A DNA stretch of 64,000 nt from Parcubacteria group bacterium (lineage in GTDB: Bacteria; Patescibacteriota; Minisyncoccia; Phycocordibacterales; Zambryskibacteraceae): the NCBI GenBank assembly GCA_028286565.1, contig JAQBRH010000004.1, positions 33,951 to 97,950 on the forward strand, read 5' to 3'. Position numbers and translations under genes: made by a program. Shown here one piece after another: positions 4,724 through 59,131 of the stretch. Numbering within the stretch: the stretch's first letter is position 1; every line of letters starts with the position of its first letter. The notes below the pieces were generated by a model. The model saw nothing but the letters and a program-made list of their open reading frames with translations. It was not told the origin of the DNA and made no database searches.

Positions 4724-5662
4724 TCAGTCACCGGAGCGAAGTCGTCGAGATCTGTCTGCTTTTGGAAGCAACTCCTTCACTTCGGTTTGCGGTCCGAGAG
4801 CGTCGATGTCCTGGCGCAGAGTCTCTTCCGCTCCAGGACCCAAGTGTTCGGTAACCTTACGTAGTCCACGAAGGTACTCTCTGAAATCCTCGGAAGCTCG
4901 AGCAAGTTCAGAACCACGCTGATCTCCAAAGCCCAAACTCTTTTCTGCTTCTGCTGTCTGATACTCCCGAAGAAGCTCGAGAGCCATTTCGGTTGCATCT
5001 GCACAAAGAGTTCTGGCTGCAAGAGAAATCTCATCGGCTTCTCTGCCACTTTCTGCACGAAGTACATCGTTAGTTGTGGTTTCTTGAAGTGCTCGGAGCA
5101 TCACGTACCGCTCAGAATCCCTTGAAAGAGCCCCGAGGATACGTCCCGCTTCTTCCTTGGCATGCGGAGTGAGACGTTCGATCGCGGAGAGAAGGGCTTT
5201 CGTCTGTGGAGCGTCGCCGACCAACTTGATAATCCGGTCAACAAACGCTTGTTGTTTTGCAGCCTCTTCTTCTTTTATCCTTTCCTTCTTTTGTCGGAAG
5301 CTATTGAGAAACTTCTGGGTCATCAAGTCGATTACAAGAATCCCCCAGACGATGCTGGCAATTAGGACCGTCGTCTGAGTAATAGAGACATTGATATCGG
5401 ACATCCAGAAAACAAGAGTAAGAAAAGCCGTTGCGATGGCCCATGCCACGTGGAAGATAGCAAAAGGCTTCGCATCCGGCTCAGTCTTGTCACCTGCAAG
5501 GGCCGCTCCGAACACGACTGAAATGAAACAGAAGAAAGCCATGGCAAAATAACCTTTTCTTTCGCTTCCTAAAAAAAATAAGGAAGTAAGGAATGAAAGG
5601 AAGGTTGGTGCAATAAGTGCCTTATTCAACCAACGAATCCCTTTTCTCATTCGCTCGAACAT
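4724..5662 (-). CDS. Hypothetical membrane protein with C-terminal coiled-coil/charged domain
   Basis: Four N-terminal hydrophobic helices, then an E/R/A-rich helical region. No family recognised. Confidence 0.5.
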   Translation of the reverse strand: MFERMRKGIRWLNKALIAPTFLSFLTSLFFLGSERKGYFAMAFFCFISVVFGAALAGDKTEPDAKPFAIFHVAWAIATAFLTLVFWMSDINVSITQTTVLIASIVWGILVIDLMTQKFLNSFRQKKERIKEEEAAKQQAFVDRIIKLVGDAPQTKALLSAIERLTPHAKEEAGRILGALSRDSERYVMLRALQETTTNDVLRAESGREADEISLAARTLCADATEMALELLREYQTAEAEKSLGFGDQRGSELARASEDFREYLRGLRKVTEHLGPGAEETLRQDIDALGPQTEVKELLPKADRSRRLRSGD

Positions 5663-20002: not shown

Positions 20003-20400
20003 TATAGTGTGTTACCCGAGAAAGAGGACGGTTCGGCCGTCCGGCAGTTCTTGTAGTCCTGATCCATAGAATTATCGCGCATGATGATCGCCTCATTGCC
20101 CTTGTTCCAAAAGACAAGCGACTCGTCCGCATTCGCATAGCGCGCCCCGGAAGCGGAGATCGCTTGGGGAAGATAGAGAGTTTTCTGTCCGCCGAATTCC
20201 AGATGGACCGAGCGCGGATAAAACTCCGCAAAGATCTCCCGGCTGTCGCATGTAAACGTCGCGGTGGAGAGAGGAGTACCCAGGATAAACACCGTTTGGA
20301 ACTTTCGGCCGAGCTGAAATCCTACGAGCAATACGGCCACAAAAAGGATAATGGCCATGGCCTGAGAGAGCGGAGTTACCCTGTTCCAGACGATCTTCAT
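20002..20400 (-). CDS. MliC-family (membrane-bound lysozyme inhibitor of C-type lysozyme)-like protein
   Basis: LPQAISASGARY and FWNKGNEAI motifs typical of the MliC family. N-terminal anchor. Start codon overlaps the PMM stop. Confidence 0.55.
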   Translation of the reverse strand: MKIVWNRVTPLSQAMAIILFVAVLLVGFQLGRKFQTVFILGTPLSTATFTCDSREIFAEFYPRSVHLEFGGQKTLYLPQAISASGARYANADESLVFWNKGNEAIIMRDNSMDQDYKNCRTAEPSSFSGNTL

Positions 20401-20402
20401 AC

Positions 20403-20657
20403 CTATAGAATATCACGAGTTCCCCCGACGAATTCGAGCTTCTGGCCCCGGGTCCATCCCTTGATCTCCGCCTCGCGCTTGGAGGCTGAGCTTCTGTTCG
20501 GGTGTTTTTCGGTGTAGAGCAATTTCTTCACTCCTTTCGATCTCGTATAATGGCCGCCCTTCCCGCCTCGGTGTTCCTTGACCCTTCTTTCCACATCGGT
20601 CGTGATGCCCGTGTACAGCGTCCCGTTTTTACATTCTAAAATATAGACAACATACAT
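20403..20657 (-). CDS. GIY-YIG nuclease family protein (UPF0213-like)
   Basis: MYVVYILECKNGTLYTGITTDVERRVKEH...GWTRGQK; start re-placed at ATG 20657. Its 3' end contains the promoter-half of the array repeat. Confidence 0.7.
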   Translation of the reverse strand: MYVVYILECKNGTLYTGITTDVERRVKEHRGGKGGHYTRSKGVKKLLYTEKHPNRSSASKREAEIKGWTRGQKLEFVGGTRDIL

Positions 20658-20697
20658 GTGCTTTTTTGCAACATGACGCAGGACTCGCATAATCTTG

Positions 20698-20970
20698 TTA
20701 GATAGCCGCCCCGTCGCCCAGATTCATATCCTGTTTATAGCGCTCAATGACTTCAGGATGGTTGCCTTCCTTGCAGTCAGCTACAAACATATCCGCGCTG
20801 GCCGCGTCAGGAAAGCTCATATAGGCCAAGGCGCTCTTGCACACGACATCGATGTTCAACTTCCCCGAGGTGTAGGTTGTGGCCGGAGTGGCTGAAGGAT
20901 TGTTTGCAAAATGGAAATATCCGCCTACTAGGACCGCCCCTACGATGACTGCGAGTAATATGTCTTTCAT
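20698..20970 (-). CDS. Hypothetical small exported protein
   Basis: N-terminal hydrophobic segment, 90 aa, no homology recognised. Confidence 0.45.
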   Translation of the reverse strand: MKDILLAVIVGAVLVGGYFHFANNPSATPATTYTSGKLNIDVVCKSALAYMSFPDAASADMFVADCKEGNHPEVIERYKQDMNLGDGAAI

Positions 20971-20995
20971 ACGGATAATTATAGCATTGTATGGA

Positions 20996-21253
20996 TTAGC
21001 CGGTAGCCAGCAAGATCCAGAGGCAGGCGAAGGCCGCCACGACTAGAATGCCCGCCGCAATCCGATAATTGGGCCTTGCGATCCTAGCGGTTACGAATGT
21101 GTAGGTAAGCCCGAGGAGGACAAAGAACACCCAGGCGAAGATAAAATCTCCCGGACCCCAATTCCATCCGCTCACGTACATGTTCCCAAAAAACGGGATC
21201 AGTAAAGCAGCCGTTGCCCAACGTACGATATTGATAATAGTTCTCTTCTGCAT
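20996..21253 (-). CDS. Hypothetical small membrane protein
   Basis: Three hydrophobic helices. Preceded by repeat R1 including the extended -10 module. Confidence 0.45.
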   Translation of the reverse strand: MQKRTIINIVRWATAALLIPFFGNMYVSGWNWGPGDFIFAWVFFVLLGLTYTFVTARIARPNYRIAAGILVVAAFACLWILLATG

Positions 21254-21260
21254 ATGTTTA

Positions 21261-21304
21261 GGATATCACGAGCCGGTCCAGTGGGCGACGTTGGAACTTT
21301 TATT
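21261..21304. repeat. Array repeat R1 (promoter-half plus conserved core)
   Basis: ggatatcacgagccggtccagtgggcgacgttggaacttttatt. Confidence 0.8.
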
Positions 21305-21342
21305 AAAATAGCCGGCCCTTGAGAGGTCGGCTTCTACAAATA

Positions 21343-21603
21343 CTAGGTACGAGTAGCAAGATTCGTGAGCGCACTGTCGACTCGCTCGAAGAAGCCGGTG
21401 TCTGACTTGCCGGCCAACCTTCGGAGGTCGGCATTCCTTTCGGCGATCGCATGAGCAGCCTCTGCCGGCATCTGGCTTTCCATCAGGATGGCCAGCATGC
21501 CCATCACTTCCCATTTAGTCGTGTATTCGGATTCGACCAGTTGCATATGAGCCTTGTACAAACGCTCTCCGACAACTTCATGAAAAGGACGGGCGCCGAC
21601 CAT
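21343..21603 (-). CDS. Hypothetical protein
   Basis: Start re-placed at ATG 21603 (RBS GAGGTG 5 nt upstream). The listed ORF uses an upstream TTG. Confidence 0.4.
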   Translation of the reverse strand: MVGARPFHEVVGERLYKAHMQLVESEYTTKWEVMGMLAILMESQMPAEAAHAIAERNADLRRLAGKSDTGFFERVDSALTNLATRT

Positions 21604-21680
21604 GATCCACCTCGGTAGTTTGTGAGCGTTCAATTCCTCTGATCAACAGAGTATCATAAATTTATGATAAGTCAATCTTA

Positions 21681-21709
21681 TTGGGTTCTATGGGGCGACG
21701 TTAAACCCT
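21681..21709. repeat. Array repeat R2 (degenerate copy)
   Basis: ttgggttctatggggcgacgttaaaccct aligns to the CTGGCCCTGTGGnACGAAGTTGGAACC core. Confidence 0.5.
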
Positions 21710-21965
21710 AGCTCAAACCAAAGTAGAAAGCGGAAGCTACTACGATCTGAGAGAAGATCGCCAACAACAGTTTCTGAAGGCCCTTCTGTGAAGGGCCGAA
21801 TACATATACCCCAAAAGATACGGCATACAGGATCATGGCCATCACTACAACTATGAGCAAATTCGGACCCTCAGGATCATTGAAGAGCGAGAACATCGTC
21901 CTAGAACATGCAAGGGATGTTATGCCCAGGATGAGCAGCGAGGTCTTTTTTGAATTGAAATTCAT
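21708..21965 (-). CDS. Hypothetical small membrane protein
   Basis: 85 aa, three hydrophobic helices. Confidence 0.4.
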   Translation of the reverse strand: MNFNSKKTSLLILGITSLACSRTMFSLFNDPEGPNLLIVVVMAMILYAVSFGVYVFGPSQKGLQKLLLAIFSQIVVASAFYFGLS

Positions 21966-21979
21966 ATGTGTAAGTATAC

Positions 21980-22025
21980 TAGAAGATCACCGGCTACCCT
22001 GTGGCTCGTACTGAAATTGGCCTTA
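21980..22025. repeat. Array repeat R3 (degenerate copy)
   Basis: agaagatcaccggctaccctgtggctcgtactgaaattggccttat. Confidence 0.5.
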
Positions 22026-22062
22026 TTTGTATATTGCCCTGAAGCGCAGTAAAATTGTGCAC

Positions 22063-22536
22063 ATGATACCAAAAAATACAATTTGTCTCTGGTTCGATAA
22101 GGATGCGGAGGAAGCGGCGAACTTTTATGCCGCCACCTTCCCCGACAGTAAAGTCACGGCGGTTTTTCATGCGCCCGGCGATTTTCCCGGCGGCAAGAAA
22201 GGTGATGTGCTTACGGTAGAATTTACCGTCTGCGGAATCCCGTGCATCGGGCTGAACGGCGGTCCCGTGTTCAAGCAAAGCGAGGCATTCTCCTTCCAGA
22301 TCGCCACGGATGACCAGGAAGAAACTGATCGCTATTGGAATACGATCGTTCAAAACGGCGGACAAGAGAGTGATTGCGGATGGTGCAAGGATCGCTGGGG
22401 AGTATCATGGCAGATCACGCCGCGTACGCTGATCGAGGCCTTCGCCGTCGGAGGGACAGAAGCAGAGCGCGCTTTTGGCGCGATGATGACAATGAAAAAA
22501 ATCGACGTCGCCGCTATCGACGCAGCCCGGGGTTAA
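22063..22536 (+). CDS. VOC-family protein (PhnB/3-demethylubiquinone methyltransferase-like glyoxalase fold)
   Basis: ICLWFDKDAEEAANFYAATFPDS...GIPCIGLNGGP motif pattern. Start re-placed at ATG 22063. Confidence 0.7.
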   Translation: MIPKNTICLWFDKDAEEAANFYAATFPDSKVTAVFHAPGDFPGGKKGDVLTVEFTVCGIPCIGLNGGPVFKQSEAFSFQIATDDQEETDRYWNTIVQNGGQESDCGWCKDRWGVSWQITPRTLIEAFAVGGTEAERAFGAMMTMKKIDVAAIDAARG

Positions 22537-22545
22537 AATTGGTTG

Positions 22546-22575
22546 CTGGCCCTGTGGGCAAAGTTGGAACTTATG
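22546..22575. repeat. Array repeat R4 (core only, no promoter-half)
   Basis: gctggccctgtgggcaaagttggaacttat; overlaps the DoxX stop codon and faces a convergent gene. Confidence 0.8.
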
Positions 22576-23014
22576 TAGTCCTCAGTCCTAGTTCCCCTCT
22601 TCTGCTTTGTAGCGCCAATATAGCCAGAACCAGAGCATAGACAATATGCTCATCAATTAGAGGATTATTGGCTGGAGGAAACAATGACAGCCACATCAAA
22701 AGCATCATCACGATCCCCGCAACCGCGCCCCACATCACACATCTATTTACCAAGAGAGTTACGCCGACAAACAAAAGACCGAGCATGAACAGCCAATCAA
22801 TGGCCGGCACGCCAGACAGGCTCTTAAACAATGGCACCAAAGGTCCGTGCGTACCAAAGCTTAAAAATCCAGATGTCGGAGAACCTCCTCTTATCCATGC
22901 ATTTTCGCTCTTTGTAGAAAAGCCTAATCCGAACACCTTATCGATAAAAGCCCACAAGAAGATGAATGACATCACAAAACGAAGCTTAAGAAATGCGATT
23001 TTTGATATGTTCAT
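22571..23014 (-). CDS. DoxX-family membrane protein
   Basis: Four TM helices with DoxX-like spacing. Confidence 0.6.
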   Translation of the reverse strand: MNISKIAFLKLRFVMSFIFLWAFIDKVFGLGFSTKSENAWIRGGSPTSGFLSFGTHGPLVPLFKSLSGVPAIDWLFMLGLLFVGVTLLVNRCVMWGAVAGIVMMLLMWLSLFPPANNPLIDEHIVYALVLAILALQSRRGELGLRTT

Positions 23015-23086
23015 TTATACAGTCTACGCCTTTTATCCATTTTTCTATATACTTCACCTAGGCTAGTACATTCACTGGAGGTATGT

Positions 23087-23677
23087 ATGACTGCACAAAT
23101 AAGCCTTACCCAACACGACGCTTCCAAGCTGCCACGCCTGGCTGCCGACCTATGGAGGATCGCGAACGGATATGGCTTTCATCCAGCCAAGGATGGGCGC
23201 TTCGAGAACGAAGCGGCAAGGGCTGACTTTGCCCACCGCCTTGATGATTTTATCTCTCATCATCTGGTACTTAAGCCGGAAGCTCCCTGCACATCTCGCA
23301 CTCTCCGCCATTTCATGGAGATGGAACGCAGACCGGTTCAGAGAAAAGAAGCCCTCGAACTGAAGAAGATAAACGAGCTCACCCTTGCCTGGGCGGCCTG
23401 CCTTCTCCTCAAGGGCTACCGGGGGCTCACCCGAGGGGAAGCGTTGAATACTCTGAAAGTCCTGGCAATTCAACTCCTTGAGAAGTTCGGATATCCGCTC
23501 CAACCCTATCGGGCGATGTTCTGTCCGATCCTAAACGCTTGGGAGAACGAAAAGGATTGGGCGGTGATACTTTCGAACGATACGGGGGTGATACAAGAAA
23601 CGCCTTGTTCATCGACCTTGGTCGTCCTACCTGACGTATGCAAGCAGTGCGTCGAAGAACATACGACCGTTCGATAG
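23087..23677 (+). CDS. Hypothetical protein
   Basis: 196 aa, RBS GGAGG upstream. Opposite orientation to neighbouring array genes. Confidence 0.5.
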   Translation: MTAQISLTQHDASKLPRLAADLWRIANGYGFHPAKDGRFENEAARADFAHRLDDFISHHLVLKPEAPCTSRTLRHFMEMERRPVQRKEALELKKINELTLAWAACLLLKGYRGLTRGEALNTLKVLAIQLLEKFGYPLQPYRAMFCPILNAWENEKDWAVILSNDTGVIQETPCSSTLVVLPDVCKQCVEEHTTVR

Positions 23678-23701
23678 CTCGACGGTCTTTTTATCTATTT
23701 T

Positions 23702-23736
23702 TACGAGCCGGCCCTGTGGTACGAAGTTGGAACTGC
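23702..23736. repeat. Array repeat R5
   Basis: tacgagccggccctgtggtacgaagttggaactgct; abuts the stop of 23736..24137. Confidence 0.8.
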
Positions 23737-24137
23737 TATACCTTAGGCATTTCAGCTATAAATGCAAACAATTCCCAAATATGACCATTAATATCGCGAA
23801 ATGCTTTTCCATACATAAAAGCTTCAGATTCGGGACTATCCTTTGTTACGTCTACAGCACCGGACGTAGTAGCTTTTTCAAAGAAAGCATCTACTTCACT
23901 CTTTGAATCAAACTGTAATGCAATGGTCAGGTTATTATTGATTGCTTCCGGATTACCTCCGACAAAAGTTGCAAATCGCTTGTCCTCCAACAACATAACA
24001 AAAGTATTTTCGTTGATCTTTGCATTAGTGGTATCTTCACTGCTGAATTGTTCATTCTTCACCATTCCTAGCGATGCAAAGAATGTATCAGTGTCAGCAA
24101 CATTTCTAATCGGCAAGTTAATGTATGTATTTTTCAT
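23736..24137 (-). CDS. VOC/glyoxalase-bleomycin-resistance family protein
   Basis: INLPIRNV...FFASLGM and ...HIWELF VOC-type beta-alpha-beta-beta-beta modules. AT-rich coding sequence. Confidence 0.6.
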   Translation of the reverse strand: MKNTYINLPIRNVADTDTFFASLGMVKNEQFSSEDTTNAKINENTFVMLLEDKRFATFVGGNPEAINNNLTIALQFDSKSEVDAFFEKATTSGAVDVTKDSPESEAFMYGKAFRDINGHIWELFAFIAEMPKV

Positions 24138-24163
24138 ATATAAAAGTATATCAAGAAAACCTC

Positions 24164-24197
24164 CAGCTGGTCCTGTGGGACGAAGGTGGAACCATTC
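24164..24197. repeat. Array repeat R6
   Basis: ccagctggtcctgtgggacgaaggtggaaccatt. Confidence 0.8.
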
Positions 24198-24209
24198 TAG
24201 GGCAGGTCC

Positions 24210-24572
24210 CTATTCCTCAGGTTCATCATTGATACCCAGCTTTGATTGAATAGCTTGTCGTATCCACCACGTCGCATAGGTTGAGAATTTATAATCAGCT
24301 TTATAATCATATTTTTCCACGGCTTTAAAAAGGCCCAGGTTACCATTTTGAATAAGATCCAATTGAGAAACATTCTGCTCGTTGTCTTTGTATGCTTCCG
24401 CAATCTTCGCTACTAATCGCAAATTCCCCTTGGCTAAAAGATTCTTTGCTTCATCATCATTATTTTCCTTAATTCTTTTAGCCAGCTTTTTCTCTTCTTC
24501 ACCGGAAATAAGTAGATATGCTGATATCTCATTAAGGTAATCTTCTAATTTTTCCTGTTCAGTTTTTTCCAT
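24210..24572 (-). CDS. Truncated sigma-70-like protein (regions 1.2-2.4 only; possible fragment or decoy)
   Basis: NLRLVAKIAEAY...LDLIQNGNLGLFKAVEKYDYKADYKFSTYATWWIRQAIQ matches RpoD region 2. Only 120 aa; lacks regions 3-4. Confidence 0.6.
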   Translation of the reverse strand: MEKTEQEKLEDYLNEISAYLLISGEEEKKLAKRIKENNDDEAKNLLAKGNLRLVAKIAEAYKDNEQNVSQLDLIQNGNLGLFKAVEKYDYKADYKFSTYATWWIRQAIQSKLGINDEPEE

Positions 24573-24623
24573 GATATGTATCTAAACGTTTATTCACTAG
24601 GATGCTTTCCCTTTAAAATCATA

Positions 24624-24660
24624 AGAGCCAGCCATGTGGGACGATGTTGGAACCTTTTTT
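24624..24660. repeat. Array repeat R7
   Basis: agagccagccatgtgggacgatgttggaacctttttt. Confidence 0.8.
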
Positions 24661-24662
24661 AA

Positions 24663-25193
24663 CTATTCCTGAGGAAAACCATACTTCTCACGTATTTCCC
24701 TAGTGTATTGCTCTATTGGTTCTAATCCAATCTCTGCCCTTCTTTCGTCAACGTGTTTTTCATCTTCTATAGGCTCAGGTCTGAAGTTTCCATCCCTATC
24801 TCTAAATTGAGTTCCGTAAACCTGTAAACCATGCTCACTTACTCGTATTCGATCTTCTAAGTACGCAACATGTTTTCTATCTACCTCCTCGGGCGATTCT
24901 GCTTTCATAAGTTCAAGACACTTTTTTTGAAAATCTTTATCGTGATCTGCGTGTTGAATTAATAGCCATGCATTACGAACACCTATTGCTCCAACTTTAG
25001 ATGTAGTGGGCCATCCGATTTCAACAACAATTTCCTTTAATCTTTCTGTATTTCTTTTATCAATTTCGTTATCCCAATACTCATCATCTACAAGATTCTT
25101 TTCTCGCATATCTTGGTCTACCTTAACCATTGTTTCTAATTCAGAAGCGATCTCTGGATTAAGCATGACTTTAGGAGTTTCTTCATTATTCAT
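24663..25193 (-). CDS. Hypothetical protein
   Basis: 176 aa, acidic. GWPT...NAWLLIQHADHD motif. No family assigned. Confidence 0.5.
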   Translation of the reverse strand: MNNEETPKVMLNPEIASELETMVKVDQDMREKNLVDDEYWDNEIDKRNTERLKEIVVEIGWPTTSKVGAIGVRNAWLLIQHADHDKDFQKKCLELMKAESPEEVDRKHVAYLEDRIRVSEHGLQVYGTQFRDRDGNFRPEPIEDEKHVDERRAEIGLEPIEQYTREIREKYGFPQE

Positions 25194-25200
25194 ATACCTA

Positions 25201-25246
25201 GAATATCACGAGCTGGGCCCTGGGGTACGAAGCTGGAACCTATTTT
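25201..25246. repeat. Array repeat R8 (promoter-half plus core)
   Basis: gaatatcacgagctgggccctggggtacgaagctggaacctatttt. Confidence 0.85.
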
Positions 25247-25827
25247 ACAGCTATAAAGTGAAAAACATGCCAGTGCTTCGTCTCTCCCGCAGCAGTTTTG
25301 CCATCTTTTTCTTCTTCACTGAACTCCGCAATCTTTAGTCCCTGCAGCAATGACTCCGCCTCTTCTTTAGTCTGAAATGTCATATCTCTACCTTCTACAT
25401 TCCACTCATCTCTATCTCCGAAGAATTGTCCGACAAATACACCGCCTGGTTTTAACGACTTAATAATTGATTGAATAACATCATTAAATTTTCCTTTAGA
25501 AGTAAACGGTAAAGAATACTGAGCGTTAATCAGATCATACGCACCTTCTACAAAATCAAAATCTTCAAAAGAACTTATTTCGTATGTGACTTTTTCGGCG
25601 GGAAGTTGCTCGAGCACTTCTCCAGAGACTGGGTTCTTATCGACAGCTGTAACATGCTCAAATCCTACAGACAAAAGATACCTCGTATCATTAAGTGCCC
25701 CTGATCCAAGATCCAATGCTTCATGTTTGTCTTGAACTAATTCGACAGCGTTAACCAAAGAAGGTCTTGGTGGCGTTTCTTTAGTTTGTTCGTAGTATTG
25801 CTCCCAGTTATGTTCACTCATGGGCAT
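25240..25827 (-). CDS. Class I SAM-dependent methyltransferase (TehB-like)
   Basis: LDLGSGALNDTRYLL motif I, VTAVDKNP, LKPGGVF. Confidence 0.7.
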   Translation of the reverse strand: MPMSEHNWEQYYEQTKETPPRPSLVNAVELVQDKHEALDLGSGALNDTRYLLSVGFEHVTAVDKNPVSGEVLEQLPAEKVTYEISSFEDFDFVEGAYDLINAQYSLPFTSKGKFNDVIQSIIKSLKPGGVFVGQFFGDRDEWNVEGRDMTFQTKEEAESLLQGLKIAEFSEEEKDGKTAAGETKHWHVFHFIAVK

Positions 25828-25837
25828 ATGATATCAG

Positions 25838-25878
25838 AATTTCGCTAGCTGGCCCTGGGATGAGGTTGGAACCTTTAT
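25838..25878. repeat. Array repeat R9
   Basis: gaatttcgctagctggccctgggatgaggttggaacctttat. Confidence 0.8.
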
Positions 25879-26399
25879 ACCGTAACAATCTTCAGATCTG
25901 CCGTATCAATTGTGCCTTTATAGAGAATATGAGGAACCAGATGGAATCCCATGGGGATCATGCCTGCTTCAATAGTTTCCTTATAGTATTCAGTGGTTGC
26001 CTCCGGTAGATAGGCATATTTCTCGACTTCATTCGGATCATAGGCCAGATAATCATCTTCTGGAGGAGGAGTCCCCTTTTCGCGTGGGGAGTTTAAATAC
26101 ACCACAGTCTTTTCTAGCTCTAGCTTTTCTGCAGGGATCTCAACATAACTTAAGGCGAAACCTTTTCCCAACTTCCGCATTTCCCTATCAACAATGCTCG
26201 GATTCAATGCACTCAGATGAAGTACGTCGTTCCACAAACAACCCAGCCTCTTTATTCTTCTTTGCAACAAAATTTCACGGCCTTCGTACTTCTTTACATG
26301 TGCCTGATACGCATCGGGGAAAATGTTTTTAAGCGTATTCAAGGGATATAGTACGGTTCCCTGCATTCCTTTGGGAACTATATGATAGACGAATGCCAT
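25875..26399 (-). CDS. Hypothetical protein
   Basis: 174 aa. No repeat between it and the downstream isochorismatase gene, suggesting a two-gene unit. Confidence 0.5.
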   Translation of the reverse strand: MAFVYHIVPKGMQGTVLYPLNTLKNIFPDAYQAHVKKYEGREILLQRRIKRLGCLWNDVLHLSALNPSIVDREMRKLGKGFALSYVEIPAEKLELEKTVVYLNSPREKGTPPPEDDYLAYDPNEVEKYAYLPEATTEYYKETIEAGMIPMGFHLVPHILYKGTIDTADLKIVTV

Positions 26400-26429
26400 A
26401 TGGGAGTAGTGTAACAGAAATTCGTTTAA

Positions 26430-26936
26430 TCAAAACTTGATCAAGAGATCCGCTGTATTTTCATAAAAAGACGTATGGGCCTTAAACCAGGTCTTATTTT
26501 TACGAGACAACCTTCCCTCCTTGTTGCTTACACTAGCTATAAGACTCTCTGCCGTTGAAACTTTATAGCCTCTTTTCATTGCTCCTATTGCTGTATCCTG
26601 AACGCATGCATTGGCATTAACTCCAATAATAATGAGGTTCTTTATCTTTAGGCTACGAAGAATTTTATCCAGATGGGTTTTTGTGAATCCACTATTGCTC
26701 TCCTTAATGATTATTTCTTCCGCGACTTTGCGAATTAATTTTTCTAATATAGGAGTTGTTCTTCCTCTGTCTTTGCCTCCAGCTTTATACTCAAAAACAA
26801 CCACCGGAATATTTTCTTTTATGCATCTACGAAGGATCTTACCTTGCTCTGCAATTAATTTTTCCTTAATATGAGCAGGAAAATTCTTTAGGAAAAAATC
26901 CTGCATATCCATCACAACGACTGCGGCATTCTTCAT
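26430..26936 (-). CDS. Isochorismatase-family cysteine hydrolase
   Basis: VVVMDMQ, conserved Lys, and the GVNANACV catalytic Cys motif. Confidence 0.7.
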   Translation of the reverse strand: MKNAAVVVMDMQDFFLKNFPAHIKEKLIAEQGKILRRCIKENIPVVVFEYKAGGKDRGRTTPILEKLIRKVAEEIIIKESNSGFTKTHLDKILRSLKIKNLIIIGVNANACVQDTAIGAMKRGYKVSTAESLIASVSNKEGRLSRKNKTWFKAHTSFYENTADLLIKF

Positions 26937-26960
26937 ATTTTAAGTATACCAGCACAAGTT

Positions 26961-27000
26961 TCGCTAGCTGGCCCTGTAGTACGATGTTGGAACCTTTGTA
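26961..27000. repeat. Array repeat R10
   Basis: tcgctagctggccctgtagtacgatgttggaacctttgta; followed (minus strand) by TGGTATACT extended -10 and a leaderless ATG. Confidence 0.8.
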
Positions 27001-27042
27001 GAAAAAGAAAAAGACCGCCTGTAAGCGATCTGCTAGTCAGAA

Positions 27043-27450
27043 TCACAGTCCTCCAAAAACATGGAGACTGTCCTTTCCCGAAGAACCTCTTGGATAGTAT
27101 TCCAGCGTGAACTCCACTGAATCTGGCATGCCTTCTGGAAGATGAGCGATCTGGTTTCCACGATACGGGATACCCCGAAAGAAGATGTTTATGAGCGATG
27201 TCAAAGCGTCAGCGATCTCTTCTTTTGAAAATTGGAAACGCTCTGAGTCAGAGATTTCACGCGGATCAGTTCCCCTCTTTGTTTCCTTCCCTATTACCTC
27301 CGCACTTATTTCAACTTCGAGGATTTCGGGTGGTACAAAGGAAGACCGAGCGATCCTGTAAGGAAAAAATACATGCCCAGTTCTCCTTGCGATGAATTCA
27401 GCAATCGCATCACCGAATTGCTGGGCAGCAATTCTTTCGTAATCAGGCAT
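27043..27450 (-). CDS. Hypothetical protein
   Basis: Start re-placed at ATG 27450 (MPDYERIAAQQ). The listed ORF starts at a TTG. Confidence 0.45.
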   Translation of the reverse strand: MPDYERIAAQQFGDAIAEFIARRTGHVFFPYRIARSSFVPPEILEVEISAEVIGKETKRGTDPREISDSERFQFSKEEIADALTSLINIFFRGIPYRGNQIAHLPEGMPDSVEFTLEYYPRGSSGKDSLHVFGGL

Positions 27451-27527
27451 AACACCTTCCAAGGCAAGATGTGGTCTGTGGTAGAACTTATCTGGTAATT
27501 AAAATACTACTTATTACAGTAAAGTCA

Positions 27528-27562
27528 AGTTGCTGGCCCTGTGGCACGAAGTTGGAACTTAT
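27528..27562. repeat. Array repeat R11
   Basis: agttgctggccctgtggcacgaagttggaacttat; followed (minus strand) by TTGACT-N16-TATTTT promoter-like sequence. Confidence 0.8.
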
Positions 27563-27565
27563 ATA

Positions 27566-27590
27566 AAAACCCAGGATTACCTGGGCGTTG
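27566..27590 (-). terminator. Rho-independent terminator at the 3' end of 27577..27792
   Basis: CCCAGG-ATTA-CCTGGG hairpin followed on the minus strand by TTTTTAT; overlaps the stop codon. Confidence 0.5.
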
Positions 27591-27792
27591 TAGAAGGCGC
27601 TTTGTAATTCGGCTGCGCCTCTGGTAGATCAAGCAGTGTTCTAGCCACAAGGGCACACACAAGAGCACAGAGAACAAATGTAACTCTCGTACTCTTTTGC
27701 TTGAATGTTACTCCCTTCATGAAAAGCAGGAGGGCGAGGAGGCCAAGGATCAAAGAAGCGGCAAGCGGGTGTGCAAACATGTGTTTCTCCAA
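27577..27792 (-). CDS. Hypothetical small membrane protein
   Basis: 71 aa, two hydrophobic helices, RBS GGAGA upstream. Confidence 0.4.
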   Translation of the reverse strand: MEKHMFAHPLAASLILGLLALLLFMKGVTFKQKSTRVTFVLCALVCALVARTLLDLPEAQPNYKAPSTTPR

Positions 27793-27864
27793 AAGATGTG
27801 AAGATTCTACTGCCAGGGGTCGTTTCTGAATATAAATTACAACTAAAAAAGTCTTAAGTCAAAT

Positions 27865-27900
27865 CTGCTGGCCCTGTGGTACGAAGTTGGAACTTTTTAA
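27865..27900. repeat. Array repeat R12
   Basis: ctgctggccctgtggtacgaagttggaactttttaa; followed (minus strand) by TTGACT-N17-TAATTT. Confidence 0.8.
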
Positions 27901-28382
27901 AGCTTCCCTCTTAATTCCAAGGCTCTTTCCATTATCCTTTCGCCTCTCTTCCCCCAATCAAAGTATTGCTTATATTCCTTAGGATCAATAAGTTTTATTT
28001 CTTCTATCTCGTTATCTGGATCTTTCACAAAATCACCATAAGGTTCAACTATACAAACACTCCTTGTCTGCCTAATAATTCTCCCCGGCTCATAAACATC
28101 TTGGAAACCTATTAGCGATTGGCTGAGAACTCGCATATTAGTTTCTTCCCTTACCTCCCGGATCACTGCTTCTTCATATGTTTCTCCTGGCTCTATTCCT
28201 CCGCCTGGCGGCATCCAGCCACTTTTTGGGTGATGGACTACTACCATTTTATCTCCATAGAAACAGAAAGCATGAACCCCTTGGAGCAACTTCCCTTCCA
28301 TATCAAATAACGGGTCTGATTCTTTATATATAATTTCAACTTCCTGACCCAATCTGTTTACATGAATAGATTTAATTTCCAT
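27897..28382 (-). CDS. NUDIX hydrolase
   Basis: NUDIX box GGGIEPGETYEEAVIREVREETNM. Confidence 0.75.
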   Translation of the reverse strand: MEIKSIHVNRLGQEVEIIYKESDPLFDMEGKLLQGVHAFCFYGDKMVVVHHPKSGWMPPGGGIEPGETYEEAVIREVREETNMRVLSQSLIGFQDVYEPGRIIRQTRSVCIVEPYGDFVKDPDNEIEEIKLIDPKEYKQYFDWGKRGERIMERALELRGKL

Positions 28383-28390
28383 CAGTTAAG

Positions 28391-28435
28391 ACTACCACGA
28401 GCTCGCCCTGTGGTACGAAGTTGGAACCTTTTTAC
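28391..28435. repeat. Array repeat R13 (promoter-half plus core)
   Basis: actaccacgagctcgccctgtggtacgaagttggaacctttttac. Confidence 0.85.
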
Positions 28436-28516
28436 AACCTTCTATTATTGACAACATCTAGGACATGATTCATATTGAACCCAGAGTACAACCCAACAAC
28501 GAATAGGAGACAAGAC

Positions 28517-28768
28517 ATGTCGAACGAGAAGTATTTCCGAGATCTGGCACCTGGGGAATTGTTTTCCTTCCAGTCGCCCACTTCCGATCCAGTCGTGGAG
28601 CCGGCCTCATACCTCGTCAAACTGAATGAGGATGAGTATCTGATGGAGCGAGGACATGGAACATTGCGCTTCATGAACTTCGAAAAGTCTCGCACTCTAG
28701 TAGTGAGCCACGGCATGGAAGACCAGGCCAATTTCGAACAGATGCTCGCTGCTTGGCCAAGGGAATAA
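28517..28768 (+). CDS. Hypothetical protein (opposite orientation inside the array)
   Basis: RBS AGGAGA 7 nt before ATG 28517. Preferred over the overlapping minus-strand ORF 28432..28791 on composition and RBS. Confidence 0.4.
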   Translation: MSNEKYFRDLAPGELFSFQSPTSDPVVEPASYLVKLNEDEYLMERGHGTLRFMNFEKSRTLVVSHGMEDQANFEQMLAAWPRE

Positions 28769-28782
28769 TCCCCGGCCCCTAC

Positions 28783-28830
28783 TTCCCACACATTCGCTTA
28801 ATTGAAAGGTGTGGGGATTTTCATAACTAA
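28783..28830. terminator. Bidirectional terminator between convergent genes
   Basis: CCCACAC...(19 nt)...GTGTGGG hairpin followed by GATTTTCAT. Confidence 0.45.
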
Positions 28831-28863
28831 AATAATCGAACGCCTGGTACTAAGTTTTAGAAT

Positions 28864-29367
28864 TTAGAGAACACACTTCCTAAGGACATCTGCAGCAATG
28901 CGACAATCTTCAAGCGCATCGTGCGACCCTCTTGGTTTTGCACCAAAAGCTTGAAAAATATCTTCAGAATTCATCCCTCCCTGGTAGCCGGTTTTAAGTA
29001 GATGAGTGTAAGCGATAGGCCAAATATCCAACACATGATAGTCATACTGTTCTTCTCCATTTCTTGAAGCTGTAAGCGTTCTTAAATGCTTCATGTCGAG
29101 CTCAGCCACAAATGAAGCGATGATCACATTGCTTCCGAATCTTTCAAAGAATTCTTGTCCTACTTCTGCTTGAGATGGAGCACCATTAAGCATCTCTTGA
29201 GTGATGCCGGACTTTACACTTGATCTCCCCTGCAGATTTGCGTGTATATAACTCACAAAAGAATCTTTTTCAGCCAGAGTGTCTTTATCTAGGAGAATGG
29301 CACCTATTTGTTTTGGTGCTCTCATTCCTTCAAAATCTATAACCAAAATATCTTTGGGGAATTTCAT
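28864..29367 (-). CDS. DEDDh-type 3'-5' exonuclease domain protein (RNase T/oligoribonuclease-like)
   Basis: VIDFEG N-terminal acidic motif and a C-terminal HDALEDCR motif. Confidence 0.55.
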   Translation of the reverse strand: MKFPKDILVIDFEGMRAPKQIGAILLDKDTLAEKDSFVSYIHANLQGRSSVKSGITQEMLNGAPSQAEVGQEFFERFGSNVIIASFVAELDMKHLRTLTASRNGEEQYDYHVLDIWPIAYTHLLKTGYQGGMNSEDIFQAFGAKPRGSHDALEDCRIAADVLRKCVL

Positions 29368-29370
29368 ATC

Positions 29371-29420
29371 TCTAGAATATCACGAGCTGGCCCTGTGGGA
29401 CGAAGTTGGAACCTTTTTAG
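29371..29420. repeat. Array repeat R14 (promoter-half plus core)
   Basis: tctagaatatcacgagctggccctgtgggacgaagttggaacctttttag; fills the whole 49-nt stop-to-start gap. Confidence 0.85.
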
Positions 29421-29842: not shown

Positions 29843-29859
29843 AGATTAATACTATAACA

Positions 29860-30074
29860 AAGTTCGAGTCCCTATTGGTTGCTGCCGATCAGGGACTCGC
29901 TCCTTACAGGAACAGGACAGAATTCGTCAGGGACTCGGTCACTCATAAAATTCTCCTGAATTTTTGTGCGACCCCGCCTCGGCCCGCCGGCCTCCGGCTT
30001 TCGAGTCCGCGCGACGCTTCGCATGTGCGAAACTGCGCCTGATCGGCAGCAAAACACGCTGCGCTTTCGTTTTG
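29860..30074. repeat. Mosaic of direct and inverted partial copies of the tRNA-Gln 3' end (T-arm/acceptor)
   Basis: 19-nt direct copy gctgccgatcagggactcg at 29881-29899 (identical to 30075-30093). Inverted T-loop fragments at 29862-29873 and 30003-30012. Inverted copy cctgatcggcagcaaaac at 30038-30055 forms an 18-bp hairpin with the tRNA 3' end. Confidence 0.75.
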
Positions 30075-30145
30075 CTGCCGATCAGGGACTCGAACCCCAA
30101 TTAACCGCTCCAGAGGCGGTCGTCCTACCATTAGACGAATCGGCA
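30075..30145 (-). tRNA. tRNA-Gln (anticodon CTG)
   Basis: Hand-folded cloverleaf: acceptor TGCCGAT/ATCGGCA with U1-A72, D-stem GTCT/GGAC, anticodon stem ACCGC/GCGGT with loop CTCTGGA, T-loop TTCGAGT, discriminator G. Four-nt variable loop. Confidence 0.6.
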
Positions 30146-30208
30146 ATTACACACAACAAACCGGCAATACCGGGAAAGAATAGCTTAAAACAAGCCCTAT
30201 TTCAAGGT

Positions 30209-30664
30209 ATGGATCTCGAGTATACTAAGCGCATGAACTGGGAAAAGAAATTCACAGACTCCATCGGGTCTAAAACATCGGTCGTCTTGCACACGATCTT
30301 TTTCATCATCATGCTTGTCCTCCCCTTCTTCGGAGTGCGGGTCGACACGGTCCTCCTCGTCCTGACCACCCTCGTGTCCTTGGAGGCCATATATCTCGCC
30401 ATTTTTATCCAGATATCAGTGAACCAGAACACCGCGAGCCTCGAAGAGGTCGAAGAGAACATCGACGAGATCCAAGAGGATGTCGACGAGATCCAAGCGA
30501 ACGTCGATGAGATCTCCACGGACATCGACGAGATCCAAGGAGATGTGGACGAGATCCAGGAAGACGTGCGAGAGGACAAGGACGCCGAAGGAGACCTCGA
30601 CCACATCCAAGCTATGCTTGAAAAGCTTCTCGAAGAAGTGAACAGATTAAAGAATCAAAAATAA
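30209..30664 (+). CDS. DUF1003-family membrane protein with C-terminal acidic octad repeats
   Basis: SIGSKTSVVLHTIFFIIM...LVSLEAIYLAIFIQISVNQN DUF1003 core. C-terminal (V/I)DEIQxxV x5 encoded by a 24-nt tandem repeat (30457-30576). Start re-placed at ATG 30209, downstream of the tRNA. Confidence 0.55.
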   Translation: MDLEYTKRMNWEKKFTDSIGSKTSVVLHTIFFIIMLVLPFFGVRVDTVLLVLTTLVSLEAIYLAIFIQISVNQNTASLEEVEENIDEIQEDVDEIQANVDEISTDIDEIQGDVDEIQEDVREDKDAEGDLDHIQAMLEKLLEEVNRLKNQK

Positions 30665-40197: not shown

Positions 40198-40269
40198 GCG
40201 GCTGTAGCTCAACGGTAGAGCACTCCCCTGTCACGGGAGAGGCCGTGGGGTCAGCACCCATCAGCCGCG
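40198..40269 (+). tRNA. tRNA-Asp-like (anticodon GTC) with non-canonical T-loop (GTCAGCA); possibly a pseudo- or atypical tRNA
   Basis: GCGGCTGTAGCTCAACGGTAGAGCACTCCCCTGTCACGGGAGAGGCCGTGGGGTCAGCACCCATCAGCCGCG; good acceptor, D and anticodon arms. T54 and A58 are replaced by G. Confidence 0.45.
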
Positions 40270-40272
40270 CAA

Positions 40273-40300
40273 AGAAAAATCCCTTCGGGGATTTTTTCGT
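40273..40300. terminator. Rho-independent terminator after tRNA-Asp-like gene
   Basis: AAAAATCCC-TTCG-GGGATTTTTT. Confidence 0.65.
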
Positions 40301-40581
40301 GCGGACTGAAGAAATGTCTAAACGACATTTCGTTGGGTGCTGACGGCCGGAGCGATGTCCCGCAAGTATGCGGGACCGCGAGGCGGGGTCGCGAAATTTC
40401 TGAGCGGCGGCGAAGAAATATTTGTGACCAGCACCCGAGTTGTTTATCAGCCGCGGCATGACAAGCTGCGTCACTGAATTCTTGCCTCTAGAACTTTAGA
40501 TTCTAAATTAGAACTTGACATTATATCATAAGTATGATTTACTAACTTCAGTTAGCACCCAAGCCCTCACAGGAGCAAAAC

Positions 40582-40767
40582 ATGGACTACGAGAAAGTAC
40601 TTGAAAAGGCAATGGAAGAAATCAGCTTCGGAGGCCACAATGGGGGCGAAGGGCAGAAAATTGCCTTTGGGCTCCTCGCACTGTCCTCTGCCGTTGTAGA
40701 AGCCTCAAAGAATCAGGTGCGCGCTGCAGAACTCGCTCTGCAAGCCGCCCAGCAAAGCTCTAGGTAG
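40582..40767 (+). CDS. Hypothetical small protein
   Basis: RBS AGGAG 8 nt upstream of ATG. 61 aa, Ala-rich helical. Terminator downstream. Confidence 0.45.
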   Translation: MDYEKVLEKAMEEISFGGHNGGEGQKIAFGLLALSSAVVEASKNQVRAAELALQAAQQSSR

Positions 40768-40851
40768 ACACCTGCCGCTTGATACACAAATTCCAATGTG
40801 GATCGAGCGGTTTTTTAATGGCAGTTCCAACATCCTCCCCTACCCCGCGCA

Positions 40852-40882
40852 AAGAAAAAACTCCAACTTCGGAGTTTTTATA
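40852..40882. terminator. Bidirectional rho-independent terminator
   Basis: AAAAAACTCC-AACTTC-GGAGTTTTTAT; overlaps the stop of 40878..41534. Confidence 0.6.
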
Positions 40883-41534
40883 TAACCTTGAATTCTTTAA
40901 ACACCGCCTCGTAGAGGGCAACGACGCGCTTGGCTTCGCGTTCATTGAGGTCAAAGGTTGAACCGTCGTGAGCGATCCTGTTCCTCACTTTATGCGCTTC
41001 CCACGCCGACTCGATGGTCAAAAAGTCGCTCGGCTCGACCGCCTTCAGCATGTCCCCGATCGAATCCCCATGGTATCCGCAGGCCCGGAGGAGGTCGTCG
41101 AGCATGATGTCCGCTTCGATGATCGCAAGCTTCCATTCGGCCGAATTGGCCGAGTTGATATGGGCCACGACCTTTTCCCATTTCCGGTTCGGAGGGGTGA
41201 CGAGCTCGTCGACCGCCTGCACGTCCGCGTGCATCCCATAGATGGCCTTTTCTTCTTCGATGATCTTCCCCATCTTCCTGACGACATAGGTGATCCCGAC
41301 GACGGCCGCCGCAGAAAGGACCACGGCCAAAAATTCGACCACCGGCCAGACGTTGCCGGCGAAGGCGGCGATGATCCGCGCCCAGATAGAATCATACGAA
41401 CCGACCCTCCAATACACGAGGAGGTCTTGAAGCCGCGAAAAAACGGCCCAGATAAAATAGAGGCCGAGGAGGAGAGATACGATCTCCACAAAGTGGTCTG
41501 ACTTCGGACCTTCTTCTTTTTTCTTTGGAGGCAT
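40878..41534 (-). CDS. Membrane-anchored protein with C-terminal HEPN-like (R-x4-H) domain (DUF4145-like)
   Basis: Two or three N-terminal TM helices. C-terminal AHKVRNRIAHDGS motif resembling HEPN Rx4-6H. Confidence 0.45.
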   Translation of the reverse strand: MPPKKKEEGPKSDHFVEIVSLLLGLYFIWAVFSRLQDLLVYWRVGSYDSIWARIIAAFAGNVWPVVEFLAVVLSAAAVVGITYVVRKMGKIIEEEKAIYGMHADVQAVDELVTPPNRKWEKVVAHINSANSAEWKLAIIEADIMLDDLLRACGYHGDSIGDMLKAVEPSDFLTIESAWEAHKVRNRIAHDGSTFDLNEREAKRVVALYEAVFKEFKVI

Positions 41535-56055: not shown

Positions 56056-56100
56056 CGTGATAAAAGTATATCATGTGCCACTCTTAGGTATGATAGACGT

Positions 56101-58068: not shown

Positions 58069-58069
58069 T

Positions 58070-59127: not shown

Positions 59128-59131
59128 AAGT

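Follow-up and report, generated by a model that had tools for sequence, protein, structure and literature searches.

A probable tRNA-anchored, integron-like cassette array in Parcubacteria, with junctions that resemble tRNA ends and carry predicted promoters

Introduction

The attC sites of integrons are imperfect inverted repeats of 57-141 nt (R''-L''...L'-R') that fold as single-stranded hairpins. An integron array is adjoined by intI with attI and the promoter Pc, which are not required for a cluster of attC sites lacking integron-integrases (CALIN), and some integron cassettes bring their own promoters. In Actinobacteria and Deinococcus-Thermus, there are leaderless genes whose -10 element immediately precedes the start codon. 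The leaderless transcriptome of M. tuberculosis is an example, as cited in PMC12641261. Tandem genomic islands have been described at tRNA genes (Islander principle, PMC4383910), as have the tycheposon islands of Prochlorococcus (bioRxiv 10.1101/2020.12.28.424599). For the candidate phyla radiation (CPR), Patescibacteria, and Parcubacteria, the searchable literature contained nothing relevant on integrons, cassettes, genomic islands, or leaderless genes. Here, we describe a 64-kb stretch of DNA (the window; assembly GCA_028286565.1, contig JAQBRH010000004.1) from a Parcubacteria metagenome-assembled genome (MAG), in which small genes beside a tRNA-Gln gene are separated by a repeated two-part junction. 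Probably, the locus is an integron-like array of cassettes anchored at a tRNA gene, and its junctions mimic tRNA ends and bring promoters of their own.

Results

Anatomy of the array and its junctions

The origin of the window is reflected in the major facilitator superfamily (MFS) protein flanking the array, which is 100% identical to 'JWN89_405, Parcubacteria group bacterium'. The array comprises approximately 20 small genes on the minus strand, from 29900 down to 20400, nearly all co-oriented and with unrelated functions. Pfam scans of their products identified an RNase T-like exonuclease, a NUDIX protein, an isochorismatase, an S-adenosylmethionine (SAM) methyltransferase, a DUF6624 protein, and a truncated sigma-70, as well as a PhnB/glyoxalase-like protein, GIY-YIG, and MliC. 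The G+C content is 36-43% in the proximal two-thirds of the array vs. approximately 53% for the remaining window. The array is real rather than a misassembly, since an independent assembly (L007) is 100% identical to it over 5126 nt. Here and below, L-numbers denote comparison loci from other genomes or assemblies; L002, L003, and L004 come from two other MAGs.

Every intergenic gap of the array was read on the minus strand. Directly 3' of the stop codon lies a core of approximately 28 nt, GGTTCCAACTTCGTCCCACAGGGCCAGC, present in 12 clear and 2 degenerate copies (Table 1); in most copies 0-5 nt separate the stop codon from the GTTCC of the core. A 27-nt core pattern with up to 3 mismatches gave 7 matches vs. 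0.00 expected. Within the 64 kb, the core is confined to the array and one copy at tRNA-Asp, with uniform orientation and location at gene boundaries, and its conservation drops with growing distance from tRNA-Gln. The units contain no inverted repeat, the tRNA-like core has no 5' acceptor partner, and no hairpin was found when the units were folded as DNA on both strands (minimum free energy between -0.3 and -4.1 kcal/mol, z from +0.3 to +2.1 vs. shuffles). Since no hairpin forms on either strand, both an attC site and a terminator were rejected as readings of the unit. The core also lacks the G+C-rich hairpin and T run of an intrinsic terminator; separate hairpin terminators are located upstream of the R11 core (27586-27569) and the R10 core (27031-27012). 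An Rfam scan detected only tRNAs in the window and only tRNA and tmRNA in L001, L002, and L005, which excludes a known RNA family. A CRISPR array was rejected as well, the repeats being spaced by 335-1754 nt with open reading frames (ORFs) in the spaces, as opposed to 28-37-nt repeats with regular spacers. Neither the core nor the core/half junction was found in viral contigs, phage records, or plasmid records.

The core is followed by a right half belonging to one of several classes. The class-A 14-mer CTCGTGATATTCTA occurs in the window solely at four array junctions and is found, identical, after cores in L002, L003, and L004, ahead of unrelated ORFs. The other classes recurring across genomes are B (TAGCGAAA...TGGTATnCT), C (AACCAATrGGGACTCGAAC...TATAGT), and D (AAAyTTGACw-N17-TAnnnT), as well as TCGTAAAA. 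Homologous methyltransferase cassettes carry a class-B half in the window (R9) and a class-A half in L004. The same right-hand sequences also adjoin different left partners: the left neighbour of the module TAGCGAAAAACAATCCC... is the real tRNA end (...GGCAGC) in L001 and, in L002, a core (...CCAGC); class C adjoins the duplicate of the tRNA end in the window and cores in L001 and L002; and TCGTAAAA is preceded by a tRNA-end duplicate in L001 and by cores in L002 and the window. As identical right halves are joined there to three different left partners, the exchange point is placed at or within the terminal CAGC. Judged from these combinations, the core appears to travel with the gene preceding it and the promoter with the one that follows. 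In L002 (approximately 4040-4100, minus strand), one core is split by a G+C-rich hairpin insertion of about 30 nt (AGTTCCAACGTCGTACC/ccgcctgctcccgaccatcgggagggcgggcagg/CCATAGGGACAGC), with a class-C promoter still downstream.

The division of the unit into two parts had been proposed in the first-pass annotation of this DNA; it stands and can be refined, since the exchange point between the parts is mappable (the same right halves on different left sites, always behind ...AGC). Both halves quoted there are present, although one C had been counted twice and the true sequence reads ...GGGCCAGCTCGTG.... The core is indeed not a terminator (neither hairpin nor T run, units unfolded), and the hairpin terminator at 27586-27569 is separate from it, as stated. 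The claim that only the core is array-specific was not borne out: CTCGTGATATTCTA is limited to junctions in the window, and the right-half classes are common to several genomes.

Promoter elements and predicted leaderless starts

The right half probably functions as a promoter, in its commonest form that of a leaderless mRNA, as judged from motif and spacing statistics. An extended -10 element followed by 6 nt and ATG is present at R14, R8, and mliC (TGATATTCT), R1 (TGATATCCT), R13 (TGGTAGTCT), and R10 (TGGTATACT). Thus, TGnTAnnnT ends 6 nt before the ATG at these six junctions, 7 nt before it at R6, and 8 nt before it at the first cassette. At R9, a TATCAT -10 lies 6 nt before the second ATG (25821), a start backed by the homologue in L004. 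R11 and R12 have TTGACT-N16/17-TAnnnT, a leader of about 50 nt, and a Shine-Dalgarno (SD)-like motif. Transcription usually starts 7 nt downstream of the last base of the -10 element; as this base is 6 nt from the ATG, the predicted start falls on the A of the ATG itself.

The extended -10 is also enriched outside the array. In the rest of the window, TGnTAnnnT ends 5-9 nt upstream of 9/61 longest-ORF starts vs. 3/1705 other ATGs (odds ratio 98, p=8e-12), and an SD-like 4-mer precedes only 8/61 non-array gene starts. Six related Parcubacteria loci have TGnTAnnnT at 19/133 starts vs. 17/3350 other ATGs (p=1.6e-18) and plain TAnnnT at 50/133 vs. 216/3350. Overall, the odds ratios for the extended -10 at gene starts are 33-98, with a spacing mode of 6. 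Because of this enrichment at gene starts in both the window and the related loci, the architecture is regarded as the native way to start transcription units in the lineage. Among the 22 core sites with a downstream same-strand ORF, an extended -10 at exactly 6 nt is present in 11 and the AAAyTTGACw promoter with leader and SD motif in approximately 8. In 11 class-A junctions from several genomes, TG and TA...T are conserved, whereas the spacer varies in sequence (AGAGAT, AGGTAT, AAACAT, GAATAC, AGAAAT, AGATAG, ATAGGT, AAACAA, GTCTAT, TAACTG) and always measures 6 nt.

The start codons of the DUF6624 gene behind R8 and of the 85-aa protein gene (ATG 21253) are real, since their homologues match in length and coverage (176-178 aa with 97-100% query coverage for DUF6624; equal length and full coverage for the 85-aa protein). 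The copies without a -10 are exactly R4 and R5, those facing convergent genes. The constant spacer length, the new -10 of R3, and the true ATGs argue that the right half is functional as a promoter rather than promoter-like by chance.

Most of what the first-pass annotation had said about promoters agrees with these data. The extended -10 is present before the ATG at R1, R8, R13, R14, and mliC, as described, but its spacing is 6 nt in the large majority of cases rather than 6-9 nt. The substitute promoters at R6 (TGATATACT), R10 (TGGTATACT), and R11/R12 (TTGACT-N16/17-TATTTT/TAATTT) were found again. R4 and R5, facing convergent genes, do lack the promoter half, yet 7-8 nt from the start of a right-half class are retained (AACCAAT and TCGTAAAA, respectively). 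The pilM instance is real (TGATATACT, 9 nt, ATG), and the description of this anatomy as the native promoter style accords with the counts above.

One cassette (ORF 24210-24572, minus strand) encodes a 120-aa sigma-70 with regions 1.2 and 2 only, lacking regions 3 and 4. Such a truncated sigma factor could interfere with RNA polymerase or with the -10 recognition on which the array promoters depend.

Probable tRNA origin of the junctions and related tRNA loci

The core with the class-A half aligns colinearly with the T-loop, acceptor strand, and CCA of tRNA-Gln plus its natural 3' flank in L008 and L010, where the real tRNA-Gln is followed by CCAACTCGTGATAGGTTATC.... The repeats of L010 are 74-100-nt pseudo-tRNA 3' halves (GGTTCGAGCCCGnGACGGCCAGCCAACTCGTGATAGG), with 81% identity over 52 nt to the tRNA-Gln end and flank of the same locus; related loci contain the repeats GTTCGAACATCGTCCCAGACGGCCAGC (L011) and AGTTCCAACCTCATCCCAGACAGCCAGC (L009). 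The series of cores from L010 through L011 to the window grades into a real tRNA 3' half. The class-A half preceding mliC contains AACTCGTGATA, and in L008 and L010 the real tRNA-Gln has this identical sequence as its flank. Positions 20423-20455, within the GIY-YIG ORF, were rejected as a tRNA-Gln 3' remnant because of a weak alignment, only AACTCGTGATA being solid.

The tRNA-Gln gene of the window is intact. The module that follows it (29879..30073) terminates in an exact 21-nt duplicate of the tRNA 3' end (29879-29899; direct repeat D16, 100% identical), which is a second kind of site. In integrative islands that target tRNA genes, the insert lies at the 3' part of an intact tRNA gene, and its far end bears a partial or displaced tRNA copy, a pattern matched here by the intact tRNA-Gln gene, the duplicate, the colinear cores, and the hybrid sites described next.

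Hybrid sites were found at three other tRNA genes. At tRNA-Asp of the window, where there is a one-cassette locus, the site AGTTCCAACATCCTCCCCTA is fused to CCCCGCGCAAAGAAAAA and a hairpin, which are a copy of the tRNA-Asp end and terminator. At tRNA-Ile in L005, the arm GTTCCAACnTCGTCCCACAG is joined to GGGCGGAC, with which the resident tRNA ends, and then to the flank of that tRNA; at tRNA-Lys in L006, the same arm is attached to the same 8-nt tRNA end without the flank. The arm shared by the three loci is GTTCCAACnTC.TCCC, after which comes the 3' end of the tRNA present at the locus and, at tRNA-Asp and tRNA-Ile, also its flank. An arm joined to the end of the resident tRNA is the pattern that would be expected of hybrid attachment sites.

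A conserved non-coding module of approximately 150-190 nt occurs directly after tRNA genes or within arrays, and the parts of it that match a tRNA change with the tRNA. It consists of a hairpin, a complement of the resident T-arm (GGGACTCGAA at tRNA-Gln, TAGGATTCGAA at tRNA-Ile, GGGTGCTGAC at tRNA-Asp), a hairpin of variable sequence (..CGAAAGACTTTTC..GAAAAGTACC.. in L001 and L005, GAGGCGGGGTCGC in both window copies), and a tRNA 3' fragment. It matches no Rfam family, and its consensus fold contains a single long-range stem, GGGACTC/GAGTCCC, which is weakly supported. The module could be a landing pad, a set of arm sites, or a small RNA. The terminator hairpin of tRNA-Gln (30040-30088, minus strand) is built from the acceptor 3' strand of the tRNA itself and an 18-nt perfect complement (CCTGATCGGCAGCAAAAC...GTTTTGCTGCCGATCAGG), and the same design is found after tRNA-Ile in L005.

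Probable cassette turnover among related genomes

A tRNA-Gln gene followed by an array of small genes was observed in L001, L003, L008-L012, L015, and L017/18. In L001, the neighbouring MFS protein is 87% identical to that of the window, yet the two loci have no array cassette in common. The 85-aa gene after R1 is array-terminal also in L011, L015, and L017, always with a class-A-type -10 at 6 nt. The number of inserts between tRNA-Gln and this gene varies, being approximately 1 in L017, 2 in L015, 6 in L011, and 16 in the window; the single insert of L017 is a remnant of the distal window gene 21708-21965. Both the conservation of the repeats and the foreign G+C content peak beside tRNA-Gln. 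These data fit insertion at the tRNA with older cassettes being pushed away, as in tandem tRNA islands. A site without inserts, in which the class-A promoter and the 85-aa gene would lie immediately behind tRNA-Gln, had been predicted but was not found as such among the loci, the nearest cases being L017/L018 with one decayed insert. An exact-match query with a cassette protein retrieved nothing beyond the copy of this array in L007, and thus gave no evidence of recent movement.

The region between R5 and R4 (22571-23677) contains two divergent genes with genome-like G+C content. One of them, a DoxX-like gene, is 68% identical to an L001 gene that is located outside the array and adjoins the MFS gene, which suggests that the region was rearranged or that core genes were captured by the array. 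A small gene for a stand-alone GIY-YIG nuclease recurs at the arrays: it is located at the distal end in the window (20403-20690, minus strand), where its last codons contain the class-A promoter of mliC, directly adjoins the real tRNA-Gln on the 5' side in L010 (14694-14945), and lies within the array in L012 (10634-10873). This recurrence could be due to chance sampling from a shared cassette pool or to a functional link.

Coordinates and other features of the window

Table 1. Positions of the tRNA genes, junction units (R1-R14), cores, and related elements

Feature	Position	Strand	Sequence and remarks
tRNA-Gln(CTG), array anchor	30074..30145	(-)	3' end ...GGTTCGAGTCCCTGATCGGCAGC; ARAGORN and Rfam
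Non-coding module after tRNA-Gln	29879..30073	(-)	tRNA terminator hairpin, GGACTCGAAAG (T-arm complement), variable part
Class-C right half	29843..29878	(-)	AACCAATAGGGACTCGAACTTTGTTATAGTATTAATCT; TGTTATAGT 8 nt 5' of first-cassette ATG (29842)
R14	29368..29413	(-)	core 29386-29413 + class-A half TCGTGATATTCTAGAGAT; ATG 29367, RNase T-like exonuclease cassette
R13	28383..28428	(-)	core + TCGTGGTAGTCTTAACTG; ATG 28382, NUDIX cassette
R12	27781..27894	(-)	core 27867-27894, TTGACT (27862-27857), N17, TAATTT, ~50-nt leader, GGAG; ATG 27780
R11	27451..27559	(-)	core 27532-27559, TTGACT (27528-27523), N16, TATTTT (27506-27501), leader, AAGG; ATG 27450
R10	26937..26994	(-)	core + class-B half TAGCGAAACTTGTGCTGGTATACTTAAAAT; ATG 26936, isochorismatase cassette
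R9	25822..25873	(-)	core with 2-nt deletion + class-B half TAGCGAAATTCTGATATCAT; likely start is second ATG 25821, methyltransferase cassette
R8	25194..25240	(-)	core + TCGTGATATTCTAGGTAT; ATG 25193, DUF6624 cassette
R7	24573..24654	(-)	core + 54 nt without clear -10; ATG 24572, truncated sigma-70 cassette
R6	24138..24193	(-)	core + TGGAGGTTTTCTTGATATACTTTTATAT; TGATATACT 7 nt 5' of ATG 24137
R5	23678..23734	(-)	core + TCGTAAAA, then terminator of convergent plus-strand gene 23087-23677; no -10
R4	22537..22571	(-)	core with 1-nt deletion + AACCAAT, then 3' end of convergent plus-strand gene 22027-22536; no -10
R3	21966..22021	(-)	degenerate unit (..CCACAGGGTAGCCGGTGATCTTCTAG), ancestral -10 lost; new TATACT 7 nt 5' of ATG 21965
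R2	21634..21708	(-)	degenerate core GGGTTTAACGTCGCCCCATAGAACCCAA, then TTGACT-N16-TACTCT with TG
R1, terminal unit	21254..21298	(-)	core + TCGTGATATCCTAAACAT; ATG 21253, 85-aa membrane protein
Class-A half without recognizable core	20401..20422	(-)	AACTCGTGATATTCTATAGGT; inside 3' end of GIY-YIG ORF, 6 nt 5' of mliC ATG 20400
Clear cores, first six	29386-29413, 28401-28428, 27867-27894, 27532-27559, 26967-26994, 25848-25873	(-)	
Clear cores, other six	25212-25240, 24627-24654, 24166-24193, 23707-23734, 22545-22571, 21272-21298	(-)	
Degenerate cores	~21681-21708, 21966-22021	(-)	
Second locus, one cassette, at tRNA-Asp	40198..40890	(+)	tRNA-Asp 40198-40270; non-coding module ending in tRNA-Asp 3' fragment (to ~40458)
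tRNA-Asp cassette	ORF 40582-40767	(+)	TTGACA promoter, leader, AGGAG, 61-aa ORF
tRNA-Asp site	40823-40850	(+)	AGTTCCAACATCCTCCCCTACCCCGCGC, then copy of tRNA-Asp 3' end + terminator flank
Non-coding module copies, window	29879-30073, 40271-40458	(-), (+)	
Non-coding module copies, other loci	L001 2491-2647, ~1021-1165; L002 7841-8000; L005 ~5049-5206		
Native non-array promoter, pilM	56056..56076	(-)	TGATATACT + 9 nt + pilM ATG

Two further features of the window were recorded. Between the MFS gene and tRNA-Gln, ORF 30202-30606 (minus strand) contains five tandem 21-nt repeats (30423-30569) encoding acidic 7-aa units, D/E-I-Q-E-D-V-like, and a 68% identical homologue occupies the same position in L001. 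A second island of low G+C content (37-45%) at 58000-62500 encodes a 624-aa TPR protein, DUF2726, and a YgjP-like metallopeptidase fragment; neither a tRNA nor the core repeat is present there.

Discussion

Proposed mechanism and its weak points

The explanation that we consider probable is a tRNA-Gln-anchored array of one- or two-gene cassettes, in which the two halves of each junction would meet immediately behind ...CCAGC. The left part, the core of about 28 nt, would belong to the upstream cassette as a diverged mimic of the tRNA-Gln sequence from the T-loop to the acceptor 3' end, and we infer a role for it as the arm that the element contributes to a site-specific recombination site. Insertion of new cassettes at the tRNA 3' end would displace older ones outward. 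The right part would be the promoter of the downstream cassette and take two forms: either TGnTAnnnT exactly 6 (rarely 7-9) nt before the ATG, with transcription presumably starting at the A or within 1-3 nt of it and yielding a leaderless mRNA, or TTGACw-N16/17-TAnnnT with a leader of about 50 nt and an SD motif. The commonest right half (TCGTGATATTCT...) may descend from, or mimic, the natural promoter located directly downstream of tRNA-Gln in this lineage.

Several observations weigh against this explanation. The identity at the junction amounts to just 4-5 nt or so (CAGC), which is short for a tyrosine integrase acting at a tRNA gene, and the cassette cores end in GCCAGC, as opposed to GGCAGC in the resident tRNA. 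Pfam scans of approximately 70 window and locus ORFs, together with precomputed Pfam lists of the other fetched loci, revealed no integrase or recombinase in the 64-kb window or beside any fetched array. Neither excised circles nor empty sites nor strain polymorphisms were observed, the sole second assembly (L007) being identical. As for the array promoters, they are predictions from sequence statistics; R7 has no convincing -10, and the homologous TGATAGGTT of L008 and L010 is 19-20 nt from the next ATG, hence not leaderless there. In a generic sigma-70 -35/-10 scan, the region was not enriched (14 matches vs. 15.9 expected), and this result was weighed neither way, since most of the candidate promoters have no -35 and the scan is blind to an extended -10.

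Alternative explanations

Together with the core, the class-A half has been conserved between genomes down to the single base, and it is homologous to the tRNA-Gln flank; R5 and its relatives retain TCGTAAAA without a -10. From these facts one could argue that the right half (TCGTGATATTCT...) is mainly the second arm of a recombination site, its likeness to a -10 being a by-product, and that the cassettes are read through from a promoter near the tRNA, similarly to the Pc of integrons. We find this unlikely, however, because four unrelated right-half classes all have promoter elements at the right distance, the length of the spacer but not its sequence is constant, R3 has regained a -10, and ordinary genes use the same architecture. 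Moreover, terminators and convergent genes interrupt the array, and ATGs without an SD motif suit leaderless starts better than internal cistrons. Another proposal places the core at the RNA level, as a 3'-untranslated element for processing, stability, or factor-dependent termination of tRNA 3'-end origin, the array being simply a variable island that lacks a recombination system of its own. It would account for the position of the core, always 0-5 nt past the stop codon on the coding strand, and for its resemblance to the tRNA T-arm and acceptor strand, which RNA-processing enzymes recognize. It is quite unlikely given that the units fold worse than shuffles (z +0.3 to +2.1) and have no 5' acceptor partner, that several cassettes possess their own hairpin terminator ahead of the core, and that at four tRNA genes the tail of the site changes with the resident tRNA and carries the flank of that tRNA. 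Since the tail follows both the resident tRNA and its flank, the sites correspond to hybrids of attachment sites rather than to an RNA motif.

The repeats might also have spread, or been copied, independently of gene arrival, either as a dispersed intergenic repeat (similar to repetitive extragenic palindromes or miniature inverted-repeat transposable elements) or through local duplication or gene conversion of one promoter region. The units are in fact short, unstructured, and highly alike within the array, and no recombinase was found nearby. This possibility is nonetheless very improbable, as the core within the 64 kb occurs only in the array and once at tRNA-Asp, all copies have one orientation and lie at gene boundaries, repeats are always linked to a tRNA 3' end in at least nine loci from different genomes, and relatives have the repeats in common but not the genes. 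A canonical integron or a CALIN can be practically dismissed: small unrelated ORFs in one orientation, each with a repeat behind it, and a base composition foreign to the genome are what such an array would display, but the units are shorter than attC sites, lack the R''/L''-L'/R' inverted-repeat structure, and do not fold into hairpins on either strand; moreover, neither IntI nor attI nor Pc was detected, and the anchor is a tRNA gene. The origin of cassettes by reverse transcription of leaderless mRNAs was considered as well and would explain boundaries exactly at the ATG.

Significance

Beyond the tRNA-anchored array itself, we tentatively propose as a plausible possibility that Parcubacteria (CPR) have an integron-like gene capture of their own. 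Single-gene cassettes would be added serially at tRNA 3' ends (Gln, Asp, Ile, Lys) by a putative trans-acting recombinase that uses unstructured tRNA-mimic sites, with a standard promoter module, mostly an extended -10 giving a leaderless mRNA, on the far side of the attachment site. Because of this promoter module, each captured gene would be expressed independently of its position in the array.

If true, the proposed array would account for the way in which CPR genomes, ultra-small and poor in classic mobile elements, exchange accessory genes, among them those for NUDIX, isochorismatase, methyltransferase, glyoxalase-like, and exonuclease proteins via a tRNA-gene hot spot. It would represent a design distinct from integrons, in which the junction brings the promoter, so that genes far from a single common promoter need not be expressed less. 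It would also provide sequence-level evidence for leaderless expression driven by an extended -10 as the normal mode in Parcubacteria. Gene calling in these uncultured organisms would be affected, since start codons directly follow the -10 element, and so would promoter prediction. In practical terms, the conserved 28-nt arm could serve as a probe for such arrays and, by co-occurrence, for the candidate recombinase.

Comparison with known systems

The array of the window resembles leaderless genes of other bacteria in that the -10 (with a TG extension) ends 6-7 nt before the ATG, with no -35 and no SD motif, and in that this arrangement is enriched at the first genes of transcription units. 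It differs from the known cases in the lineage, Parcubacteria, and in the location of the promoter within a repeated, mobile-looking junction, the starts being predicted here.

With tandem tRNA islands and tycheposons, the locus shares the target (the tRNA 3' end), the partial tRNA copies between successive inserts, and the distal location of degenerate older copies. Those islands are multi-kb and integrase-bearing, whereas the units of the window are 0.3-1.3 kb long and single-gene, with no integrase found and no replication module; tRNA islands usually encode a tyrosine recombinase as their integrase, and no integrase domain was detected in the cassettes and neighbours examined. In addition, the repeat is not a copy of the resident tRNA but a conserved mimic common to several genomes and tRNA targets, and the junctions carry standardized promoters.

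Integron arrays, especially sedentary chromosomal integrons with homogeneous attC sites, offer the other close parallel. Shared features are a single orientation of small, unrelated, and compositionally foreign ORFs, a conserved site at the 3' end of each ORF, cassette content that varies between relatives, and insertion at one fixed end of the array, which we infer here. In contrast to integrons, the sites of the window are unstructured tRNA-end mimics of approximately 28 nt rather than folded imperfect palindromes, the anchor is a tRNA gene instead of attI, no adjacent integrase and no common Pc were found, and nearly every junction supplies a predicted promoter.

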